From Thermoplasmatota archaeon (GTDB lineage Archaea > Thermoplasmatota > E2 > UBA202 > JdFR-43), in contig JAPDJP010000014.1 in NCBI GenBank assembly GCA_029259055.1, positions 5,935 to 69,934 of the forward strand: a stretch of DNA of 64,000 bases, in the 5' to 3' direction. How positions within the stretch are numbered: the stretch's first letter is position 1; each line of letters starts with the position of its first letter. Of the stretch, positions 4,220-64,000 are shown one piece after another. The position numbers and the translations under genes are program-made. The notes beneath the pieces are model-generated. The model was not told the DNA's origin, did no database searches, and was given only the letters and a program-made list of their open reading frames with translations.

Positions 4220-5245
4220 ATGGTTGCAATTGTGAGTTATGGAGCGTATGTGCCCAAATATAGAATAAAAGTTGAAGAAATTGCAAGGGTATGGGGAAGA
4301 CAAGCAAAATCCATTTCTGCTGGCTTAAATGTTTTTGAAAAATCTGTTCCCTCTATTGATGAAGATACTGCCACCATAGCTGTTGAAGCTGCAAGAAAAG
4401 CCGTTGAGCATGGCGGAATAAATGCTAAAGAAATAGGAGCAATTTATGTTGGTTCAGAAAGTCATCCATATGCTGTCAAACCAACCGCAACCATTGTTGC
4501 GGAAGCAATAGGAGCAACCCCAGATTTAACCGCCGCTGATTATGAATTTGCCTGTAAAGCTGGAACAGCGGGAATGCAAAATTGTATTGCATTGGTTAAT
4601 TCAGGAATGATAAAATACGGGATGGCAATTGGTGTTGATGTTGCTCAAGCAGCTCCAGGAGATGCTTTGGAATATACAGCTGCTGCGGGAGGAGCAGCTT
4701 TTATAATAGGAAGGGAGGGAATAGCAGAAATAAATGAAACAGTTTCATTTACAACAGATACACCAGATTTTTGGAGAAGAGAAGGACAACCTTATCCGGG
4801 GCATGGAGAACGATTTACTGGGGAGCCCGCTTATTTCCGTCACATTATGAGTGCTGCAAAATTGTTAATGGAGAAAGTTGGGACAAAACCATCTGATTAT
4901 GATTATGCAGTTTTTCATCAACCAAATGGTAAATTTCCTGTTAGAGTTGCAAAAAAACTTGGATTTGATAAAAAACAAATTGAAGATGGTTTATTATGCC
5001 CAATTATTGGAAATACATATTCAGGCTCAACCATGCTGGGGCTAGTGGCAATTTTAGATATAGCTAAACCGGGGCAACGTATTTTGGCTGTTTCATACGG
5101 TTCAGGCGCTGGCTCTGATGCTTTTGATATTACTGTTACAGATAAAATTGAAGGATATGAAAGAATGAAATTAAAAGAAATGCTAAATAAAAAGGAATAT
5201 GTTGATTATGCGACTTACATGAAATTTAGAGGTGAATTTAGATGA
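4220..5245 (+). CDS. hydroxymethylglutaryl-CoA synthase (archaeal type)
   Basis: [16 protein letters not shown] start typical of archaeal HMGCS. Thiolase-fold with catalytic Cys region. Start moved to internal Met. Confidence 0.85.
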
Positions 5246-25053: not shown

Positions 25054-25135
25054 TGCGGGGGGTGGGATTCGAACCCACGAAGGCCTTCGCCACAGGGTCC
25101 TAAGCCCTGCGCCGTTACCGCTTGGCTACCCCCGC
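25054..25135 (-). tRNA. tRNA-Leu (anticodon TAG), long variable arm
   Basis: Minus-strand read GCGGGGGTAGCCAAGCGGTAACGGCGCAGGGCTTAGGACCCTGTGGCGAAGGCCTTCGTGGGTTCGAATCCCACCCCCCGCA. 7-bp acceptor stem, GTTCGAATC T-loop, anticodon loop CTTAGGA, long extra arm. CCA not encoded. Confidence 0.8.
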
Positions 25136-54840: not shown

Positions 54841-54930
54841 AAAATGAGGATTGAAAACCTATACTTATATTTTTGTGTTTTACTTTTTCTATTATTTCTT
54901 TTTCGAGACTTTACATTAACTTTTTACATT

Positions 54931-54977
54931 AAAAGTATTTAAATATCCTTAAAAATATTCTAATTAGGTAGATAATC
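54931..54977 (+). promoter_or_regulatory. repeated promoter element copy A (TATA-like TTTAAATA)
   Basis: AAAAGTATTTAAATATCCTTAAAAATATTCTAATTAGGTAGATAATC then ATGCAA. Near-identical to copy B at 57039 and similar to copy C at 60851. Confidence 0.55.
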
Positions 54978-55370
54978 ATGCAAACGCAAAATCTGAAAAA
55001 AGTGTTTAGTGAGCATCCGGAGATCTTAGTAGCTTATCTATTCGGCTCTTTAGCAAAAGGAGAAGCAAATGAGAAAAGCGATGTAGATATAGGCATTCTT
55101 GTTAGTAAGAATTTCAAACCAGATAGATTTTACGAAGTGAAAATAGCTGAAGAGATAGAAAAAGAAGTTGGTTTAAGAAGAGTGGAGGTTGTGATATTAA
55201 ACGATAAACCCGTAAGCTTTCTTAACCAAGTCTTAAGATATGGTAAACTCATTTTCTGTAGAGATGATAAAGCGAGAGTTTCTTTTGAAACTATAGTAAC
55301 GAAAAAATTCATAGACCTTAAACCATATTTTGAAGAATATAATAAGATGAGGGTGTTGAAGTATGATTGA
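54978..55370 (+). CDS. minimal nucleotidyltransferase (MNT, HepT/MNT antitoxin-type)
   Basis: LFGSLAKGEANEKSDVDIGILV GS...DxD nucleotidyltransferase motif. 130 aa. Confidence 0.75.
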   Translation: MQTQNLKKVFSEHPEILVAYLFGSLAKGEANEKSDVDIGILVSKNFKPDRFYEVKIAEEIEKEVGLRRVEVVILNDKPVSFLNQVLRYGKLIFCRDDKARVSFETIVTKKFIDLKPYFEEYNKMRVLKYD

Positions 55371-55474
55371 TAAGGATTTAATAGAAGCTAAATTTGACAT
55401 AATAGAAACAATTCGCTTATTTAATTTCTTGAAGAAGATGCTTTGTAAAGATCTTGAAATTTCTTAAAAAGGTT
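55367..55474 (+). pseudogene. HepT (HEPN toxin) N-terminal remnant, 35 codons
   Basis: ATGA-overlapped ORF MIDKDLIEAKFDIIETIRLFNFLKKMLCKDLEIS. Resembles HepT N-terminus but lacks the Rx4HxY region. It runs into the 3' end of the convergent AbiEii gene. Confidence 0.45.
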
Positions 55475-56325
55475 TCAAATTCTTTAGTCGGTTTAACGAT
55501 AAACATGCTTCTTTCGAAAGGGTCTTCTAAAATTTCATTTCCGATATCGAAAAACTTTCTATTCTTTTCCAAGTTTTCTCTATATTTTTGATAATAAAGA
55601 GAAAAAAGTATCTTATCTATTATCTGTTGCTTTAATTTACTTACAAGAGTCAATTTTGGATCCACCACGAATATATCATAGAAATCTCTCAATTTTTGTT
55701 TCCTTCTTGTCAATATAGCTCTTATTTTTTCACAAAGGATTTCTTTTATATCGTAAACTACCACATTAAAAGGCTTATAAAATTCAAAAAAATCTTGAAA
55801 ATATGTTTTTTCGTTTCTATCTAACTTAGCGTTTGTTAATAATGTATTTGCTCTTCTTTCCTTAGGTTTAAACAAAATTTTCTCGACAAAATTTACTTGG
55901 ATCTTAATTATTTCTTCTTTATACCACATTTTAAACGTTACCATTCTTCCACCTCCTCCAAACTCAAAATATTTTTTATCCTCCAAATTAGAGAGAAAAT
56001 CGATATTCATCTTCTTTCCTACCAATTCAAGAAATTTTGCAAATTCATTTATTTTTTCTATCAGTTTCTTTCTTATCCTTTTCCTTCCTAATCCTTCCCA
56101 TATCTCCTGATTTAACCATGTAAAATCTAGATCAACACTAAACCTATAATATCCTAAATAACACTTTATCAAACAACTACCTCCCTTAAAGATGTAATTC
56201 CTTCCAAAGTTTTCTGAAATTTCTTTCAGAATTCTGTGAATTATAACATCTCTTTCAATTAACGATCTATTTTCTATTCCTGTTTTCTCGGCAATAAATT
56301 CAACAAATTCAGATAAGTCTGGCAT
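55417..56325 (-). CDS. AbiEii/DUF1814-family nucleotidyltransferase (type IV TA toxin)
   Basis: FKGGSCLIKCYLGYYRFSVDLDF core motif of AbiEii family. Confidence 0.65.
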   Translation of the reverse strand: MPDLSEFVEFIAEKTGIENRSLIERDVIIHRILKEISENFGRNYIFKGGSCLIKCYLGYYRFSVDLDFTWLNQEIWEGLGRKRIRKKLIEKINEFAKFLELVGKKMNIDFLSNLEDKKYFEFGGGGRMVTFKMWYKEEIIKIQVNFVEKILFKPKERRANTLLTNAKLDRNEKTYFQDFFEFYKPFNVVVYDIKEILCEKIRAILTRRKQKLRDFYDIFVVDPKLTLVSKLKQQIIDKILFSLYYQKYRENLEKNRKFFDIGNEILEDPFERSMFIVKPTKEFETFLRNFKIFTKHLLQEIK

Positions 56326-56935
56326 TTTCCATCATTCCTTTAACACTTTTTGGATAAAATTTCACATACTTTGCTAATCTTTTTCTATTCACTTTATTCC
56401 TGTATTCTTCAATAAAAGAAATAATCTTTTCTTCTGGTACAGACCTGTATCTAAAAATATAAATAAAATCTAGCAATGTTTTTTCAATATCGGAGAATGG
56501 AATTTCATCATTTTTAATCCCAAAGCTCAATAATTTTGGTTTTAACTTAATGAACTTCACTTTTTCTCCCATAACCTTTATTTCCTTTGCTCTGAAAATT
56601 TTATCGTTTATTATGAAGATAGTATCAAAAAATTCATGGGTTAAACCATTCAATCTTAATGCTGTGTACAAACCAAAATACCATTTTATCCTAAGTTTAT
56701 TCATTCCTAAGGAAAGAATTCGATAAATACTCAACGCTTTTTTCAATTTAAATTCTTCAATGTTCTTTACATAATATAACCCTCTCAGAATTCTTATCAA
56801 ATATCCATAGTAAATCATAAAGTTCAGTGTATTATCAATGTTTACCCTAAATCTTTTCAAGACTTTTTCTATTTCTTCCCTTTCTAAAACCTTTCCTCCA
56901 TATTCCGAAATCAAGTATTTTATCGCATTCCTCAT
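56309..56935 (-). CDS. AbiEi-like antitoxin/transcriptional regulator (tentative)
   Basis: Upstream, overlapping partner of AbiEii. About 200 aa with N-terminal wHTH-like region. Confidence 0.45.
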   Translation of the reverse strand: MRNAIKYLISEYGGKVLEREEIEKVLKRFRVNIDNTLNFMIYYGYLIRILRGLYYVKNIEEFKLKKALSIYRILSLGMNKLRIKWYFGLYTALRLNGLTHEFFDTIFIINDKIFRAKEIKVMGEKVKFIKLKPKLLSFGIKNDEIPFSDIEKTLLDFIYIFRYRSVPEEKIISFIEEYRNKVNRKRLAKYVKFYPKSVKGMMENARLI

Positions 56936-57038
56936 GATTGTTATTTATATAACAATAATTAAAAAAGTTTTTGGTTGTTATATAAATAACAAGATGGAAA
57001 TGACAATATTTTACGTCCTTTTATATATTTTACCACTA

Positions 57039-57087
57039 AAAAGTATTTAAATACTCTTAAAAATATTTCTAATTAGGGTAGATAATC
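57039..57087 (+). promoter_or_regulatory. repeated promoter element copy B
   Basis: AAAAGTATTTAAATACTCTTAAAAATATTTCTAATTAGGGTAGATAATC then ATGCAA. Confidence 0.55.
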
Positions 57088-58905
57088 ATGCAACGTACTT
57101 TACGAATTCCAAGCTTTGTAACACCAGAAGCATATTTTAAAGTCATAAGCGAAGAGTTAGCTCGCCGTATCCTTTCTCGACCTTACGAAGCAGATGCTTC
57201 TTTTTCCACTTACTCACAAGCTTTACCAAGCATAGAAAGTGAATATGTTACTCCTAGCAATATTTGTGTTTCTTATAATATTAATGGTAAGCCAACTTTG
57301 GAGCAATTGATTGATGGATTACCTTCAGAAGAAGAAAGAGGGATAGAGAAGATTTACAATTCGTTAAGCGAGGGGAAAAGGAAAGAGCTGTATGATGTTC
57401 TTTTCTATGATAAGCTTATTACCGATGTTGCTGATAGAAGTGAGATTAAAGAGCTTAGAAATAAAATCTACTTTTCTGAAATTGGTAAGAAAAGCAGAAA
57501 GGAAGTGAAAAGGAAAATAAGGGAGGAGATTGAGCGATATTTAGAGAATAACGTTAAGCCCATTATAGAAGAATATAGAAAAGAACTTCTTTCTCGAGCA
57601 AATGGAGAGAGCGATTTAACCAACGTAATTAATGAAATCTTTTCTCCTCAAAATGCAGGCGATTACCTAAGAGCTTTAGAATACATAAAGAAAATCGGAT
57701 TTCACAATTTTCTAGAAGAACTCGTGTTTGAAAACGAAAATCCTTCTTCTCCTGTTGAATATCTCCACGAAGCCATTGCAAGCGATGCAATGGCTGATTA
57801 TTTGCTAAGGAAAGGACTGTATCATATTAGCAAAGATGGTGCTCTTGAAAGAGCAAGCAGCTATGGAGAAATATTTCACAAGCTCTCTAAGCAAGAAAGA
57901 AAAAAAGTCAAGGAATATGAAAAGAAGCTTGGGTTGAGGAAGAGCAAGGCATTTGCAATTGGAGCTGCAAGCATTATATTAGGAGCGATAGGAGCAGCAG
58001 CTTATCATGCCTACAAAAGCGGAGAAAAGCTTAAAGGAGATGGCTCTTACTTTTTCCACAACCCTAATGATTACATAAAATATCTAAAATCAATATGGAA
58101 CAAACACAGCAACGATATTGACAACGATCGTATTCCTAATGATGTTGAGGAAAAGTATGGGTTGGATATGTTTGATGGAAAGGATGCCTGGAAAGATAAC
58201 GATGGTGACAAGTTTCCTGATTGGTTTGAAGAAAAGGTAAGTGGAACAGACCCAGTCATTCCAAATCATAGATGGGCGATCTTGGAGCATGGATTTAATA
58301 AAGGTGGGATAGGGTTATACAAAATATTTACTAAAAAATTAGGGGAGAAGGAGGTTCCTTGGGAGGCTTCGGGTTTAGGTTTCGATAAAGACAAAGTCAT
58401 ACTCCTTAAAGGTCCTAATGCAACATTTCAGAATTATCTTGATGCCATAAATGAAACGAAGCAAAAAATTTCTCCGAATGATTTTTTGGTGATAAGGATA
58501 TATGGGCATGGAGCTGAAGGGTGGTTTGGTTTTAATAACGGGAGCGAATTAAAAGATGATTATACGTCAGATTTGCATCAATATTCTGAAATAATAAAAC
58601 CAATAGAGGATGTTGAATGTGATCGTATAATCTTTTTTATAGACGCTTGTTATAGTGGTTCGGCAATACAATCATTTAAAAAAGCTTTATTTAAGTCTCC
58701 TATTATTGTATATACAAGTGGGAAAAGCGACGAAACAACTGCACCTCATATCGACAATTTTCTAAAAGCATTAGATGATAAAAAGCGGATAGAGATGGAA
58801 ACTATTTTATTTCCCTTTATGAAGCTTATAAAAGTGTATACGATGAAGTTTCAACATTTAAATATGAACCAGACTATCCTCAACAATACGATCCTTTTAA
58901 TTTAG
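57088..58905 (+). CDS. single-pass membrane protein: cytoplasmic N-domain, TM, DxDGD Ca-like motifs, extracellular legumain/GPI8-like (C13) peptidase domain
   Basis: TM AFAIGAASIILGAIGAAAYHAY at about aa 290. DNDGDKFPDWFE. His in RIYGHGAEGWF and Cys in IIFFIDACYSGSAI, paralleling legumain HG and EACESGS catalytic dyad. Confidence 0.6.
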   Translation: MQRTLRIPSFVTPEAYFKVISEELARRILSRPYEADASFSTYSQALPSIESEYVTPSNICVSYNINGKPTLEQLIDGLPSEEERGIEKIYNSLSEGKRKELYDVLFYDKLITDVADRSEIKELRNKIYFSEIGKKSRKEVKRKIREEIERYLENNVKPIIEEYRKELLSRANGESDLTNVINEIFSPQNAGDYLRALEYIKKIGFHNFLEELVFENENPSSPVEYLHEAIASDAMADYLLRKGLYHISKDGALERASSYGEIFHKLSKQERKKVKEYEKKLGLRKSKAFAIGAASIILGAIGAAAYHAYKSGEKLKGDGSYFFHNPNDYIKYLKSIWNKHSNDIDNDRIPNDVEEKYGLDMFDGKDAWKDNDGDKFPDWFEEKVSGTDPVIPNHRWAILEHGFNKGGIGLYKIFTKKLGEKEVPWEASGLGFDKDKVILLKGPNATFQNYLDAINETKQKISPNDFLVIRIYGHGAEGWFGFNNGSELKDDYTSDLHQYSEIIKPIEDVECDRIIFFIDACYSGSAIQSFKKALFKSPIIVYTSGKSDETTAPHIDNFLKALDDKKRIEMETILFPFMKLIKVYTMKFQHLNMNQTILNNTILLI

Positions 58906-59043
58906 CTAATAAAACATATTTGGCTCCTATTGTGGCGAAGGAATAACGATCAGTAGAATTGTGCTACTAATACTTCAATTGTTAATTTAAACAAAATCAA
59001 GAATAAGAAAATTTAAATAAATCCTTAGGTAAAAAATAAAATT

Positions 59044-59481
59044 ATGAAAAAGAAATTTCTAGTTGTAGTAGTACTTCTTTTTTTAATAGCCTTTACAAAG
59101 AATGTTTATGCTGCATGTAAAATTTCTTGTTATACTTGTAGTCCCTTCCAGGGTTGTCCTCAAATTCCATCTGGATGCTGGTATGAAGAAGGAAATTATG
59201 TAGAAAGAATATGTATAGTTGGAGATGTAAGTTACGGTCCTGGCGATGGGCAGGAAGAGGGTTGTGTAGATGCGGGAGATTACTGGGGATGTTCGTGTTA
59301 TGATCCTCAAGGATACTGCGGAAATGAGATTTGTTTAGCTACAAGTGAGGGATATAACGGAGCGACATGCGAAATAAAAGATCGATGCTTTTGGAGTGGT
59401 TGTGGTTGGAAAACTGTATCTGGTAAATGGGATGCATCTGAAGATAAATGTGTAAAATGTGATAGTAAAATAAAGAAATAG
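59044..59481 (+). CDS. secreted cysteine-rich small protein (signal peptide, about 24 Cys)
   Basis: MKKKFLVVVVLLFLIAFTKNVYA signal. Mature part dense in Cys/Gly/Asp/Tyr. Confidence 0.6.
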   Translation: MKKKFLVVVVLLFLIAFTKNVYAACKISCYTCSPFQGCPQIPSGCWYEEGNYVERICIVGDVSYGPGDGQEEGCVDAGDYWGCSCYDPQGYCGNEICLATSEGYNGATCEIKDRCFWSGCGWKTVSGKWDASEDKCVKCDSKIKK

Positions 59482-60296
59482 GAATTTTAGGAGATACTTC
59501 AGGAATATACGTCGGTTGTGGAGATGATAATCCCAACTCTGGCAATGGGCTATGCGAATCTGCATGTAATGAAACGGTTGCTCCAGAATGTGACGAACAT
59601 CCTCCTGGCTATCCATGTGGAACAAACAATCCCCATGCAACATGGGGGGTTTGTTGCTACGATGAGCTAACTGGAGAAACTTTTTGCGCAAGATCAGAGA
59701 ACTGCGGTCCTCCTGATGACGAAGTGAATACAGGGATTCCTTGTGATAACACAGAGGATTGTGTGACTTGTACCAATGAATGTAAATGTCCAGTACAACC
59801 ATGTGAAGATGAATGTACCTATGGAAAAAAAAGATGTAGTGGTTCTGTAGCTCAGCAATGTGGAGATTGTGACGATGATCCTTGTTATGAATGGTGTGAT
59901 GTTGAAGATTGTTCCAGCAAGTGGGATAAGTGGACATGTAAGCCTGGAACAACCAAACGTTGTTGGAAAGATGGATATTGTAGTAATGGAAACTGTTATG
60001 CAACCTATTCTTCTTGCTCTTGGTACAAAGATTGTGGTGCAGAGTGTGAAGCTGGAGATACAAAAACATGCCCTGATGGAACTGTTGTGAGTTGTGATAC
60101 TTCAACATGTACATTTCCAAGTTGTCCTTCTGAAATCCCAGAAGGAGCTATAAGAGTCTTCGTAACGTCTAAACAATATAGAGGAGATCTTGGTGGATTA
60201 GGTGGAGCGGATGCAAAATGTCAGGCGAGGGCTGACAATGTAAAAAGCATTAATCATTCGATAATCATCCGAGAATTATCTGATGAAGAAACATAA
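59469..60296 (+). CDS. cysteine-rich protein segment without own ATG; probable frameshifted continuation of 59044..59481
   Basis: Frame is open from 59469, 13 nt before the stop of the upstream Cys-rich ORF. No ATG until far downstream (track start 59724 is GTG). Same Cys-rich composition. Confidence 0.45.
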   Translation, partial: NKEIGILGDTSGIYVGCGDDNPNSGNGLCESACNETVAPECDEHPPGYPCGTNNPHATWGVCCYDELTGETFCARSENCGPPDDEVNTGIPCDNTEDCVTCTNECKCPVQPCEDECTYGKKRCSGSVAQQCGDCDDDPCYEWCDVEDCSSKWDKWTCKPGTTKRCWKDGYCSNGNCYATYSSCSWYKDCGAECEAGDTKTCPDGTVVSCDTSTCTFPSCPSEIPEGAIRVFVTSKQYRGDLGGLGGADAKCQARADNVKSINHSIIIRELSDEET

Positions 60297-60327
60297 TACG
60301 TTGATCTCTTTATCAATATGTTTTCGT

Positions 60328-60546
60328 TTACAAAAATTCCTCAATAGACTTTCTAGTTTGCTTAACTATATATTTCAATACAAATTTGCTTATCTCTTTA
60401 TGTAGTGGGACCCATGTTGTAAGAACTTTACCATTTTCCAATCGCTTTTTAAAAGTCATATGCTTTCTTGTTCTTACGTTCTTAAATCCATTTTTCTCTA
60501 GAACTTCGATTACTTTACGCTGAGGAAGAGGCTTTAATTTTACCAT
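60328..60546 (-). CDS. hicA: HicA-family toxin (YcfA-like mRNA interferase)
   Basis: LPQRKVIEVLEKNGFKNVRTRKHMTFKK pattern of HicA. 72 aa. Confidence 0.55.
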   Translation of the reverse strand: MVKLKPLPQRKVIEVLEKNGFKNVRTRKHMTFKKRLENGKVLTTWVPLHKEISKFVLKYIVKQTRKSIEEFL

Positions 60547-60775
60547 GCGCCTTACCTCTTAAAACAATAGAAGAGAACGTTATTGAAATAGACTTAAAAA
60601 CTTCAATATTTGGCTTTGGTGTGTCAGGATCTTCCATATATTCTTTAATTAAATCTTCCATATTTTCTTTTGCTTCCTTTTGAGTTTTTCCTTGGGTTGC
60701 TAACTCGAATATAGGGCAAAAAGCAATCCACCATTTATCTTCTTTAAACAAAATAATGGGAACCGGTACAGACAT
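60515..60775 (-). CDS. hicB: HicB-family antitoxin (UPF0150)
   Basis: MSVPVPIILFKEDKWWIAFCPIFELATQGKTQKEAKENMEDLIKEYMED matches HicB N-domain pattern. Start trimmed. Confidence 0.5.
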   Translation of the reverse strand: MSVPVPIILFKEDKWWIAFCPIFELATQGKTQKEAKENMEDLIKEYMEDPDTPKPNIEVFKSISITFSSIVLRGKAHGKIKASSSA

Positions 60776-60850
60776 ATCTTTATCACCTTGCATAATACTA
60801 AGTTTTGGCACATATAAATCTCTTTTCATTCAATATATATTTCACCACCA

Positions 60851-60895
60851 TCAAGCATTTAAATACCCTTAAAAATATTTCTAATAGGGGTGAGT
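60851..60895 (+). promoter_or_regulatory. repeated promoter element copy C
   Basis: TCAAGCATTTAAATACCCTTAAAAATATTTCTAATAGGGGTGAGT then ATG. Confidence 0.5.
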
Positions 60896-62770
60896 ATGCG
60901 TTTTGCCCTTCACATAAAACCAGAATACGTAGAAGCTGTGAGCAACGAGCTTTTAAAGAGAGCTAGAGGCTTGTTAGCGTATCCTATCGATACTACCAGC
61001 GTTAGAGTTTCAACAGATTTTCAGGAATACTGGAATGATAATGTGAATTACAATCCTGAGATTCCGAAAGAGATAAAAGAAATGTTAAATCTCTATGATG
61101 GTAGGGAGAAAGACAATATCTACAATGCTTTTATACAGGATAAATATATTGAGGAATTGATCAATGGAGCGAGGGAGATCAAAAGGAAAATTTACATGGA
61201 AAATGTGGGGAGAAAAAGCAGAAAGGAGATAAAAAAGGAGATAAGGCAAGCTGTAAAGAAGTATATGGAAGAAAATGCAGGATTGCTTTTAGAAAGATAT
61301 AAGGAAGAATTGAAGAGAAAAGCGGGAGATGAGTTGAAAAACAAAATAGAGGAATTTTTTTCCGCTAACAATTTGAAGGATTATTATGAAAAGTTGAGCC
61401 ACATAAAATTCGTTGGCATCGACTCTACTTTAGAAGATCCAACCAAGTCTGCTGAAGATTACTTACATTCCCTATTGAAGGAAGAGGCAGCAGCAGACTA
61501 TCTAACTAGAAAGGGGCTTTATTTCATTAGCGGAGACGGAGAGTTGAAGAGAGCAAAGAATTATAAAGAAATATTTCACAAGCTCTCTAAGCAAGAAAGG
61601 AAAAAAGTCAAGGAATATGAAAAGAAGCTTGGGTTGAGGAAGAGCAAATTATTAACATGGATATCTATTGGTAGTCTTCTAGGCTTATCAGCTGCAGCTC
61701 TTGCTTATGCTTCTATGGATCCAGACCATGATGGACTTAGAAATCTGGGCGAGATTCACCATAGAACAGATCCTCACAACCCGGATACAGACGGCGATGG
61801 TATTAACGATTATGAAGAAATATTTAAATATAATACAAATCCTCTTAAACCAGATAGCGATTATGATGGATTAACAGATTTTCAAGAAATCTTTAATTAT
61901 TCAACAGATCCGTTAGACCCGGATTGCGATAAGGATAACTTATTAGACGGTCAAGAAATTGAAAATAAAACCGATCCCTTTTCTATTGATACAGATGGGG
62001 ATTGGATAAGAGATGATCTTGAAATATTTAAACATCATACCGATCCTACAAAGTTAGATACAGACGGCGATGGTATAGATGATTTTAATGAACTTTTTAC
62101 ATATCCTCATATCTTGAATGCTACGAAAAAGGATGCCGAAAAATTACTAAGCAAGATTCCGAATGTACAGCCAATGCCATGGAATGAAAGTAATGACTAT
62201 ATTAAAGAAAATATAGGTGTTTATCCTTGGGAAGGTTTTATAGGAAGATATAAGGTAGATAATTGGGATCACATTATAATTTCTATTTCAAAGCGAGACC
62301 CATTAGTTAAGTTTTTTGCTAAGCACGCTTACATAGAATGGCTTGGACCTAAAAAAGATCCAGGAGGTGAGTGGTCCTATAGCAATGTGGGTATTCTAAA
62401 AACTTACGGTGGAAGAATATCTAAAGAATATGGAAGAGGTGGACCAGTTCAGCCGTCCCACTTCCTCACCTCTGGAAGAATCGGGACTTGTCAGCACGCG
62501 TCAGTTACTGCAGCAACACTTTTACAACTTATGGGATATGATTCAGTACTTGTTTATGGAGACTATGAACCTATTGGTCAAACATTAGGTCATCAATGGG
62601 TAGAGACTGTTATAGATGGTGAGGTATATGTTGTTAACTTTGATGGGTTAGCTCCAAGGGATGAATTTTATTTTTGGAATCCAGACCTTAAGAAAGTTGC
62701 AATTGGTGGGATAGAAGGAGCTTGTATACCTTATGACCCAGACTGGTATAAAAAAGGCTTACATGTGTAG
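60896..62770 (+). CDS. single-pass membrane protein paralog: shared cytoplasmic N-domain, TM, thrombospondin-type-3-like DxDxDGxxD repeats, extracellular transglutaminase-like Cys-His-Asp domain
   Basis: Start at ATG 60896 (track start is GTG). TM LLTWISIGSLLGLSAAALAYA. Repeats DPDHDG, DTDGDGINDYEEI, DSDYDGLTDFQEI, DTDGDGIDDFNEL. GTCQHAS ... GHQWVE ... D. Confidence 0.6.
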   Translation: MRFALHIKPEYVEAVSNELLKRARGLLAYPIDTTSVRVSTDFQEYWNDNVNYNPEIPKEIKEMLNLYDGREKDNIYNAFIQDKYIEELINGAREIKRKIYMENVGRKSRKEIKKEIRQAVKKYMEENAGLLLERYKEELKRKAGDELKNKIEEFFSANNLKDYYEKLSHIKFVGIDSTLEDPTKSAEDYLHSLLKEEAAADYLTRKGLYFISGDGELKRAKNYKEIFHKLSKQERKKVKEYEKKLGLRKSKLLTWISIGSLLGLSAAALAYASMDPDHDGLRNLGEIHHRTDPHNPDTDGDGINDYEEIFKYNTNPLKPDSDYDGLTDFQEIFNYSTDPLDPDCDKDNLLDGQEIENKTDPFSIDTDGDWIRDDLEIFKHHTDPTKLDTDGDGIDDFNELFTYPHILNATKKDAEKLLSKIPNVQPMPWNESNDYIKENIGVYPWEGFIGRYKVDNWDHIIISISKRDPLVKFFAKHAYIEWLGPKKDPGGEWSYSNVGILKTYGGRISKEYGRGGPVQPSHFLTSGRIGTCQHASVTAATLLQLMGYDSVLVYGDYEPIGQTLGHQWVETVIDGEVYVVNFDGLAPRDEFYFWNPDLKKVAIGGIEGACIPYDPDWYKKGLHV

Positions 62771-62975
62771 ACAAACTTAACGATTGAAACAATAATAAGA
62801 AGACAACAATTATCGCAACGATGAAATTCATTGCTTTGCTCTCGGAAGTGTTACCATGGTAGCTACGTGAGTTGAGATGCCAAGAAGCTTAGCTTCTCTA
62901 TTGATCAATGGAATTAACAGAACCAAATAAATTTAAATAATAAATTTGTGTTAATTAAATATATGCTGCGATATC

Positions 62976-63431
62976 TTGTTGGAATTATTCTTATTGTGTT
63001 ATTTTGTTGGAGGGGTTTTCTTCTTCACGAATATAAAAGAAAAGCCTATAAAATGTGTAAATGGAACGATTCCAAAAAGTATTTTTTGCTTAGTAGAAGA
63101 GCCGAAACTCTTACAAGAAAATAGCTACATGGAAATAAAATTCCTATTGGGAAAAAATGAAAAATTAAGTGAGAATGATTATTTAATTCTATTAACGGAT
63201 CTCGATAATGTTTCTGTTCAAAGTAATTTAAAATTCGTCAGATCAAGATATCAGTTTTCAGCGGATATAAAGAACGAAAAGAGAGTTGAAATTAACATTT
63301 CTGGTTACCTTCCGTCGAGAAACAAGGAAATATGGTTCAATAACTCCCTTATTCGCTTGCCAAATCATGTATTGTTATTCGAAATTCAAAAAACTGAGAA
63401 AGGTGTAAAGGTATATGAGATTTATGAATAG
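62976..63431 (+). CDS. small hypothetical protein with hydrophobic N-terminus
   Basis: ORF-track only. Alternative ATG at 62963 in another frame gives a 52-aa TM peptide. Neither is supported by motifs. Confidence 0.25.
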   Translation: MLELFLLCYFVGGVFFFTNIKEKPIKCVNGTIPKSIFCLVEEPKLLQENSYMEIKFLLGKNEKLSENDYLILLTDLDNVSVQSNLKFVRSRYQFSADIKNEKRVEINISGYLPSRNKEIWFNNSLIRLPNHVLLFEIQKTEKGVKVYEIYE

Positions 63432-64000
63432 AACTTTACTTATTACTTTGATATTGTTATTATCACTATTGAGCATTGGATATGCTCCAGATACATGTCC
63501 AATATGCACTCTAAGATATTGTTGTAGTCCGGGATATTGTGATGAAGGTACTATAACTTATTGGACACCAGCTCCATGTACCCATAATCCTGGTGCCCAA
63601 GAATCATCTTGTACAGCAGGTCAGTGGTCTCCATGCCCACAGAATGTGTGGAAGTGCTATGATTATTGTGTTCAGACAAGTGATGAAGAGTGTCCAACAG
63701 ATGAACCATATTGTTATATTATCCAACCAGATCCTAATCCACCTTGTACAGATAACGGGGTACCTGAAGTAGAGCATGGATACTGCGTAGAGTGCTATGA
63801 AAATTATCATTGTCCAGGAACTGATGATGCTTGTGAATGCGGAAAAGATTTTACTTGTAAACCATGTTCTGAAAATGAATATTGTGATAAAAATAGATGC
63901 CGATCAAAGAAAAAATGTGGGACTGGGGTGGGGGAGATGTGTAAGGGATATAATGTAGCAGAATGTGATTTCTTCTATTGTAGCAGAGAAGGAGAGTGTG
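63424..64000 (+). CDS. secreted cysteine-rich protein, 3'-partial (runs off window)
   Basis: ATG at 63424 gives MNRTLLITLILLLSLLSIGYA signal then CPICTLRYCCSPGYCDEG... Cys-rich to window end. Absent from ORF track because there is no stop. Confidence 0.55.
   Translation, partial: MNRTLLITLILLLSLLSIGYAPDTCPICTLRYCCSPGYCDEGTITYWTPAPCTHNPGAQESSCTAGQWSPCPQNVWKCYDYCVQTSDEECPTDEPYCYIIQPDPNPPCTDNGVPEVEHGYCVECYENYHCPGTDDACECGKDFTCKPCSENEYCDKNRCRSKKKCGTGVGEMCKGYNVAECDFFYCSREGEC

Follow-up and report, generated by a model that had tools for sequence, protein, structure and literature searches.

A strain-variable archaeal locus carrying a frameshifted gene for a membrane-anchored, predicted clan CD peptidase

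Gene A and the layout of its product

We analyzed a 64,000-nt stretch of contig JAPDJP010000014.1 from a Thermoplasmatota archaeon (assembly GCA_029259055.1), hereafter the window, in whose coordinates positions are given, and concentrated on one of its genes, here called gene A, and on the genomic island around it. Gene A encodes an anchor-stalk-peptidase protein in which an N-terminal region, a single transmembrane helix, a stalk with thrombospondin type 3-like (TSP3) motifs, and a head domain of peptidase clan CD follow one another (Table 1). A first-pass annotation, made from the DNA letters and their translations, had described the gene as a membrane-anchored, legumain- or GPI8-like peptidase. 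The open reading frame (ORF) is present exactly where that annotation had placed it and translates into 605 amino acids (aa), but its last 39 aa are out of frame, and the -1 shift responsible had been missed.

The N-terminal region contains 47 Lys or Arg and 49 Asp or Glu residues and is 38% identical to the corresponding region of a paralog in the same island, gene B. It had no match in Pfam or NCBIfam, a profile of it found nothing below E = 0.01 in the PDB, and its AlphaFold2 model was unreliable, with a predicted local distance difference test (pLDDT) score of 42. Only one hydrophobic segment was identified in the product by the hydropathy scan (aa 288-309). Because the net charge is +7 over the 20 residues on its N-terminal side and +1 over the 15 residues on its C-terminal side, the positive-inside rule places the N-terminus inside and the peptidase domain outside. 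The product is accordingly predicted to be a type II (N-in, C-out), single-pass membrane protein with an extracellular head, and the membrane-anchored, extracellular placement in the first-pass annotation agrees with this topology. In the stalk, the NCBIfam model throspo3_MtsD matched weakly (E = 0.001, aa 341-390), and the Pfam family TSP3_bac was matched by 11 of 31 top relatives.

Table 1. Features of gene A, its paralog, and the surrounding island, with related genes in other loci. Positions refer to the window unless another locus is named.
Feature	Position	Strand	Remarks
Gene A, anchor-stalk-peptidase protein	57088..58905	+	ORF as read; final 39 aa out of frame
Gene A N-terminal region, aa 1-286	57088..57945	+	predicted cytoplasmic, mostly helical, without known fold
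80-nt block, copy 1, encoding EIFHKLSKQERKKVKEYEKKLGLRKSK	57868..57947	+	N-domain/transmembrane junction of gene A
Single transmembrane helix, aa 288-309, AFAIGAASIILGAIGAAAYHAY	57949..58014	+	hydropathy scan
Stalk with two degenerate TSP3-type Ca-binding motifs (DIDNDRIPNDVEE, DNDGDKFPDWFEE), aa 341-390	58108..58257	+	NCBIfam throspo3_MtsD
Clan CD (C13-like) peptidase domain, frame-0 part, aa 392-566	58261..58785	+	Pfam, profile, AlphaFold2, Foldseek
His474-Gly475	58507-58512	+	within RIYGHGAEGW, which begins at aa 470 (His474 codon 58507-58509)
Asp519	58642-58644	+	two residues before Cys521
Cys521	58648-58650	+	within FFIDACYSGS, which begins at aa 516
Frameshift site AAAAAG (codons AAA AAG)	58780..58785	+	-1 shift (equal to one more A) needed for conserved tail
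Conserved C-terminus of peptidase domain, 53 aa and stop	58785..58946	+ (-1 frame)	alignment with all relatives
EF-hand-like loop DRDGNYFISLYE	58788-58823	+ (-1 frame)	family alignment; calmodulin EF-loop match
Strain-variable island between MAT (S-adenosylmethionine synthetase) and UbiA	54841..64000		continues beyond window end
MNT-type nucleotidyltransferase	54978-55370	+	left end of island
AbiEii	55417-56325	-	PADLOC E = 1e-96
AbiEi	56309-56935	-	PADLOC E = 6e-81
Cys-rich secreted protein, 145 aa, 16 Cys, signal peptide	59044..59481	+	possible DUF1554 fragment, by position and composition only
Truncated Cys-rich/DUF1554 fragment, 190 aa, 25 Cys	59724..60296	+	ends just past DUF1554 start
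HicA toxin	60328-60546	-	Pfam HicA_toxin (L001 context)
HicB-like antitoxin	60515-60829	-	beside HicA
Paralog gene B	60890..62770	+	B-type N-domain, transmembrane helix, TSP3 repeats, transglutaminase-like core (Cys-His-Asp)
80-nt block, copy 2	61568-61647	+	in gene B
Small protein, 151 aa, N-terminal transmembrane helix	62976..63431	+	recurs downstream of anchor-enzyme genes
Cys-rich DUF1554 genes elsewhere	L002 6103-8070; L088 3535-5310; L087 8876-10683		recur beside anchor-enzyme genes

The head domain and its place in clan CD

Peptidase_C13 (PF01650; cut-off 22.8 bits) was identified by Pfam in the gene A ORF at aa 462-549 (E = 2.2e-5, 24.6 bits). The frame-corrected head, described below, scored 27.3 bits for C13, above the cut-off, whereas for C14 (PF00656; cut-off 21.4 bits) it reached 18.6 bits. 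Among the same 31 top relatives, 23 matched C13 (best E = 4.9e-15) and 3 matched C14. The match is thus marginal, with the relatives P0002 (20.3 bits) and P0010 (21.1 bits) below the C13 cut-off, P0003 having no match, and P0022 matching C14 and not C13.

A profile of 30 family members (A4) found Arabidopsis metacaspase-4 as its best single match in the PDB (E = 9.5e-12), together with many legumain chains (E about 6e-9). In these alignments, the His-Gly of the family falls on the catalytic His148-Gly149 of legumain and the invariant Cys on its Cys189, and the dyad of metacaspase-4 is aligned likewise. The full gene A protein, searched against the PDB as a single sequence, gave no match. Comparison by hhalign with a manually entered sequence of human legumain gave a probability of 96.5% and covered the stretch T..NF ... 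HG ... AC.SGS; the A4 search of deposited PDB sequences reproduced this alignment. Both the profile and hhalign therefore set His474 and Cys521 on the catalytic His148 and Cys189, the correspondence that the first-pass annotation had seen in the local motifs.

AlphaFold2, run on the corrected domain with the A4 alignment, gave a model with a pLDDT of 86.4 and a predicted template modeling score of 0.87. The best 50 PDB matches of this model in Foldseek were all legumains, plant asparaginyl endopeptidases, or peptide asparaginyl ligases (PALs), with E down to 5e-10 and a template modeling score of about 0.6. Across the family alignment, the His-Gly is near-invariant and the Cys invariant, and the His(-Gly) precedes the Cys at the ends of consecutive strands, as the caspase-hemoglobinase fold has it. 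The C13-type fold proposed for this region was recovered by the Pfam score, the family profile, and Foldseek alike. On these sequence comparisons and the predicted model, we place the head in clan CD, with C13 as the nearest known family and the head at the edge of it; the sequence signal itself is divided between C13 and C14.

With legumain and its plant relatives (C13, PF01650), the head shares the caspase-hemoglobinase fold, the His-Gly ... Ala-Cys-x-Ser-Gly-Ser residues at equal positions, and a T..NF motif upstream of the His strand. It differs from them in having no counterpart of legumain Arg44/His45, in Asp519 standing for legumain Glu187, in the missing LSAM pro-domain, in its TSP3 stalk, EF-hand-like loop, and N-terminal transmembrane anchor, and in its marginal Pfam score. 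The position two residues before the Cys varies within the family (D, T, H, N, S, or E); GPI8 has Asp there, as in gene A. With metacaspases and the bacterial orthocaspase-like proteins (C14B, PF00656), the head shares the D-x-C-(H/Y)-x-G motif and a plausible dependence on Ca2+, but gene A lies under the Pfam C14 threshold and its best structural matches are all C13. The nearest relatives outside the family in a word search were 250-aa secreted proteins matching both PF00656 and PF01650.

A loop of the form D-x-D-x-N-G-[YF]-[VI]-S-x-x-E is kept across the family before the last helix and matches calmodulin EF-loops (E about 1e-5, A4), and weak EF-hand Pfam matches were identified in relatives. 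Together with the TSP3 stalk, this loop suggests that the head is a Ca-dependent extracellular enzyme.

The Asn/Asp specificity of legumain has been assigned to Arg44, His45, Ser216, and Asp231 (PMC4357240), and the first-pass annotation had named conservation of such a pocket as a check of its proposal. The segment corresponding to Arg44/His45, namely the loop behind strand 1 and the beginning of the next helix, varies among the 30 aligned family members, contains many gaps, and was left unaligned by both HMMER and hhalign; it is also the only low-confidence stretch of the head model (domain residues 21-37, pLDDT below 50). No counterpart of Arg44/His45 was found in the family. By our reading of the alignment between A4 and legumain, the Ser216 position is occupied by Thr551, and Asp231 could not be aligned. 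The legumain-type Asn pocket is thus not conserved, and the P1 specificity of the head is not readable from its sequence.

A frameshift near the end of gene A

The reading frame of gene A passes through GAT GAT AAA AAG CGG, and the conserved tail of the family continues from there in the -1 frame, where the sequence from 58785 to the stop at 58946 reads ADRDGNYFISLYEAYKSVYDEVSTFKYEPDYPQQYDPFNLANKTYLAPIVAKE. The tail common to all relatives has the form ...D-x-[DN]-G-x-G-[YF]-[VI]-S-x-x-E-A-F...P-Q-x-x-D-x-x-N-[IL]...Y-L-G, and because it sits in the -1 frame in gene A, the ORF of 605 aa closes with 39 residues that are non-native. The frame-corrected protein has 619 aa, and its restored tail (ADRDGNYFISLYEAY...PQQYDP...YL) aligns with the family. 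It ends at aa 619 with no residues left over, and no C-terminal pro-domain of the LSAM type was identified in it.

In terms of the AlphaFold2 model, the shift removes the EF-hand-like loop, the last helix (domain residues 192-204), and the last strand (214-216), all of which would be replaced in the frameshifted copy by 39 unrelated residues. The product of the uncorrected ORF is most likely misfolded, judging by this model, and the copy in this genome is most likely an inactivated allele, that is, a presumptive pseudogene.

The frameshift is probably real and not a random error, because a second assembly (L001, from ENA) that differs at 17 positions elsewhere is identical over 56900-59100, the frameshift site included. 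A genuine shift is also plausible because the island is variable and partly decayed, with neighboring genes truncated or split. Alternatively, it could be an artifact of sequencing or assembly at the run of A, in which case the gene would be intact and the true protein an active enzyme of 619 aa. The site is indeed a homopolymer (AAAAA G), one assembly has a coverage of only 3.8x, and every relative is encoded by a single ORF. The identity of two otherwise differing assemblies across the site speaks against such an error, however, as does the genuine disruption of other genes in the island, one of them at 57x coverage. A run of five A is, moreover, short for Illumina homopolymer errors, and we allow this explanation a minor but real chance.

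Programmed -1 ribosomal frameshifting at U-AAA-AAG would also yield a full-length enzyme from the split frames. The shift that is needed is exactly -1 and falls on AAA-AAG. Within this sequence lies A-AAG, a slip site familiar from IS3, and the site also resembles A-AAA-AAT in the archaeal fucA1 gene (PMC1616953). Against this, no stimulatory structure was identified in the downstream 90 nt (folding energy z = +0.14 relative to shuffles), the first base of the heptamer falls outside the X-XXY-YYZ pattern, and the split is shared by no homolog. Programmed frameshifting in gene A is therefore unlikely, and among the readings considered here we give it a very slight chance.

Size of the family and exchange of anchors and heads

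A profile built from four sequences of the domain was searched exhaustively with HMMER and returned 6,390 cluster representatives at E <= 1e-3, of which 437 reached <= 1e-10 and 11 reached <= 1e-30. Genes for putative extracellular peptidases, including clostripain (C11), gingipain (C25), interpain, and legumain (C13), have been reported from metagenome-assembled genomes (MAGs) of sedimentary MBG-D/Thermoprofundales in a context of protein degradation (PMC6461988). These belong to the same phylum as the host of gene A and share with its product the predicted extracellular location and clan CD. They were annotated by database matches and were not dissected, and the anchor architecture, the swapping of heads, and the frameshift described here are absent from that work. 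Given the size of the family and this earlier report of C13 genes in Thermoplasmatota, the statement in the first-pass annotation that C13 enzymes are rare in archaea has no support. No biochemically characterized prokaryotic C13 enzyme was found in the literature searched.

The N-terminal region of gene A is far more restricted, occurring in only four other proteins in a collection of 5.8 billion sequences. Two of its relatives, P0002 and P0003, are about 90% identical to the gene A product over the first ~370 aa; beyond that point, they have differing numbers of TSP3 repeats and heads only 18-31% identical to that of the window, although both heads contain the HG/C dyad. A third type of N-domain (in P0010, P0022, and P0157) was found with either type of head. 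P0157, which comes from another lineage, joins this third anchor type to the same transglutaminase-like head as gene B. In 79 of the 152 top head homologs, a signal or anchor lies within the N-terminal 40 aa; in a further 23, the single transmembrane helix comes only after more than 150 aa. The long N-domains of head homologs fall into at least three groups without mutual BLAST relationship. A scan of species-representative genomes for the conserved junction peptides described below confirmed no relative, and none was found in viral contigs; the A4 alignment was too divergent for scanning by pattern.

Genes A and B share an 80-nt block, which encodes the basic juxtamembrane peptide EIFHKLSKQERKKVKEYEKKLGLRKSK and of which the window holds 2 copies with 1 mismatch between them, where 0 matches are expected by chance. 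A 75-nt motif within the block is identical at 73 of 75 nt, synonymous sites included, while its flanks are far more divergent. The gene of P0004, in the related locus L002 (block at 4366-4445), is near-identical to gene B up to the block and to gene A from there on; this switch from B-like to A-like sequence marks it as a recombinant whose crossover lies in the block. The L002 block differs from the window copies by three substitutions. As all three are synonymous, they point to purifying selection on the junction peptide and to homogenization of the two copies within the window genome. A metagenome scan for the 26-nt core of the junction found it in one JGI contig only. These comparisons show an exchange of anchors and heads between strains by recombination.

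Cassette recombination at a conserved junction is also seen at the VENN motif of CdiA toxins. As there, a short conserved segment lies between exchangeable modules, and here a recombinant between paralog types was observed. The archaeal locus differs in that both sides of the junction vary and that toxin activity, an immunity gene, and a delivery system were not found. The architecture with swapped heads and the 80-nt junction are the most noteworthy by-product of this analysis. With the junction, the observed recombinant, and an anchor that occurs with either a clan CD or a transglutaminase-like head, the locus shows domain shuffling of an archaeal surface protein at nucleotide resolution.

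The genomic island and its neighboring genes

In the related MAGs L005, L007, and L008, the gene for UbiA directly adjoins that for MAT; in the window, about 10 kb lie between the two. MAT itself shows 92% identity to its counterpart in an uncultured Thermoplasmatales MAG and 87-89% to others, among them those of JdFR-43 and AUK isolates, and the host is accordingly an uncultured member of the Thermoplasmatota. The island between MAT and UbiA contains, in order, the genes for MNT, AbiEii, and AbiEi, gene A, two Cys-rich ORFs, HicA/HicB, gene B, the 151-aa transmembrane protein, and further Cys-rich ORFs. In the sister strain L087, the island is shorter and holds MNT-HepT, the P0002 variant with its different head, and a DUF1554 gene split by a GGG-to-GG change at 57x coverage.

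A three-gene pattern was identified in L002, L088, L087, and the window, consisting of an anchor-enzyme gene, a gene for a small transmembrane protein (about 150-166 aa), and a gene for a large, secreted Cys-rich DUF1554 (endostatin-like) protein. The small proteins form a family of 151-166 aa with an N-terminal transmembrane helix and without a Pfam match, with other members encoded at L002 5619-6119 and L088 3072-3551, and their genes come immediately after anchor-enzyme genes of both head types; the 151-aa protein of the window is 33% identical to the 166-aa protein of L002 (E = 1e-18) and related to the 159-aa protein of L088. The intact Cys-rich DUF1554 proteins contain about 9-10% Cys. 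Of the two Cys-rich ORFs behind gene A, the product of 59044..59481 had no sequence match to these intact proteins, and that of 59724..60296 is 85% identical to a 340-aa ORF of L087 and 72% identical over 40 aa to the DUF1554 protein of L002.

At L002 2698-3065, upstream of HicB, part of an A-type N-terminus has survived, with 77% identity to aa 14-74 of gene A, and a piece of a DUF1554 gene lies behind it; both are leftovers of a rearrangement at the same locus. The island as a whole is fast-evolving, accessory, variable, and partly decayed.

Such a setting could also house a strain-variable surface or conflict effector, comparable to polymorphic toxins, whose heads are diversified by cassette recombination and act on, or are targeted by, competitors or viruses. 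The abrupt change from ~90% identity over the N-terminal 370 aa of strain variants to heads only 18-31% identical, the defined recombination junction, the AbiE, HicAB, and MNT/HepT genes in the island, and the small ORF that follows the gene would all fit an effector. Yet homologs of this small ORF follow both head types, for which reason we rejected it as a cognate, head-specific immunity gene, and the N-domains vary as well (types A, B, and C), leaving no constant delivery module. PADLOC gave no meaningful defense-system match for gene A, gene B, or the 151-aa protein, its only hit being a weak "caspase" match (E = 0.0016), and no secretion-system genes lie nearby in the L001 context. We regard an effector role as distinctly improbable.

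Probable function of the gene A family

On balance, we favor reading the gene A product as a membrane-tethered, extracellular peptidase of clan CD, nearest to C13, of which this copy has probably been inactivated by the frameshift. In intact relatives, His474 would activate Cys521 for attack on a peptide bond in some extracellular or surface protein, and water would then resolve the acyl-enzyme; Ca2+ bound at the stalk and at the EF-hand-like loop would probably stabilize the fold. The most likely job of such an enzyme would be extracellular proteolysis, either for the scavenging of protein or for the processing of co-encoded secreted proteins, and not sorting of the GPI8 type. The extracellular clan CD peptidases, C13 among them, reported from sedimentary Thermoplasmatota (PMC6461988) set a precedent for this ecological reading.

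Several points weigh against this peptidase reading. For every member of the family, peptidase activity is a prediction from sequence and model. The conserved three-gene neighborhood with Cys-rich DUF1554 proteins hints at a dedicated substrate and not at bulk proteolysis, and a simple digestive role leaves the long cytoplasmic domain unexplained. The run of five A, with one assembly at 3.8x coverage, also leaves room for an assembly error, against the inactivation of this copy.

The likeness to GPI8 was the least well borne out part of the first-pass annotation, which was right about fold and family and unsupported in what it said of function. GPI8/PIGK, also of C13, shares with the gene A product the family-level fold, the dyad, and the position of a membrane-bound enzyme on the non-cytoplasmic side. 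It has, however, a signal peptide and a C-terminal transmembrane helix and works in a five-subunit complex with PIG-T, GAA1, PIG-S, and PIG-U, whereas the anchor of gene A is N-terminal and preceded by a 286-aa cytoplasmic domain. In L001, where called genes were considered as far as 8 kb before and 7 kb behind gene A, none carried a Pfam family resembling a GPI-transamidase partner.

The transpeptidase role that had been suggested along with this likeness is speculative, and the conserved neighborhood with Cys-rich secreted proteins is what speaks for it. In its fullest form, the head would be a sorting or maturation transpeptidase that cleaves and transfers or cross-links the adjacent Cys-rich DUF1554 surface protein, and the transglutaminase-like head of the paralog, gene B, would carry out a chemically related transamidation. 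Consistent with this, GPI8 and the PALs found by Foldseek show that transamidases and ligases exist within C13, family genes recur with small transmembrane and Cys-rich DUF1554 proteins in at least four loci, and both the clan CD and the transglutaminase-like heads use Cys-based acyl-transfer chemistry. On the other hand, the neighboring proteins share no recognizable C-terminal sorting signal, and heads and neighbors do not co-vary, with heads 18-31% identical and the DUF1554 proteins 44-70%. The anchor is oriented opposite to that of GPI8, with no partner subunits in the gene context, and the residues that separate ligases from proteases among PALs could not be mapped. We consider the chance of such a transpeptidase small.

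A broader proposal would take the anchor-stalk-head protein, the small transmembrane protein, and the Cys-rich DUF1554 protein as one archaeal module for the maturation or attachment of surface proteins, in which the tethered Cys enzyme, with a clan CD or a transglutaminase-like head that could in either case perform transamidation, processes or cross-links the DUF1554 protein and recombination at the 80-nt junction reshuffles heads and cytoplasmic domains between strains. We hold this to be a long shot; if true, the module would be previously undescribed and functionally analogous to sortase or GPI8, with strain-level variability built in.

Under the favored reading as a peptidase, gene A adds little beyond another uncharacterized prokaryotic relative of legumain in a copy that is probably broken; the enzyme is of an ordinary kind, and its modular architecture is of moderate interest. 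The family as a whole, with its TSP3 stalk, EF-hand-like loop, HG...DAC(Y/H)SGSA motif, and hundreds of members, is a tractable target in the search for new clan CD specificity, and its recurrent pairing with Cys-rich DUF1554 proteins offers a testable hypothesis on the substrate.

Elsewhere in the window, a tRNA gene at 25054-25135 on the reverse strand was the sole Rfam match at the gathering threshold (62.7 bits).

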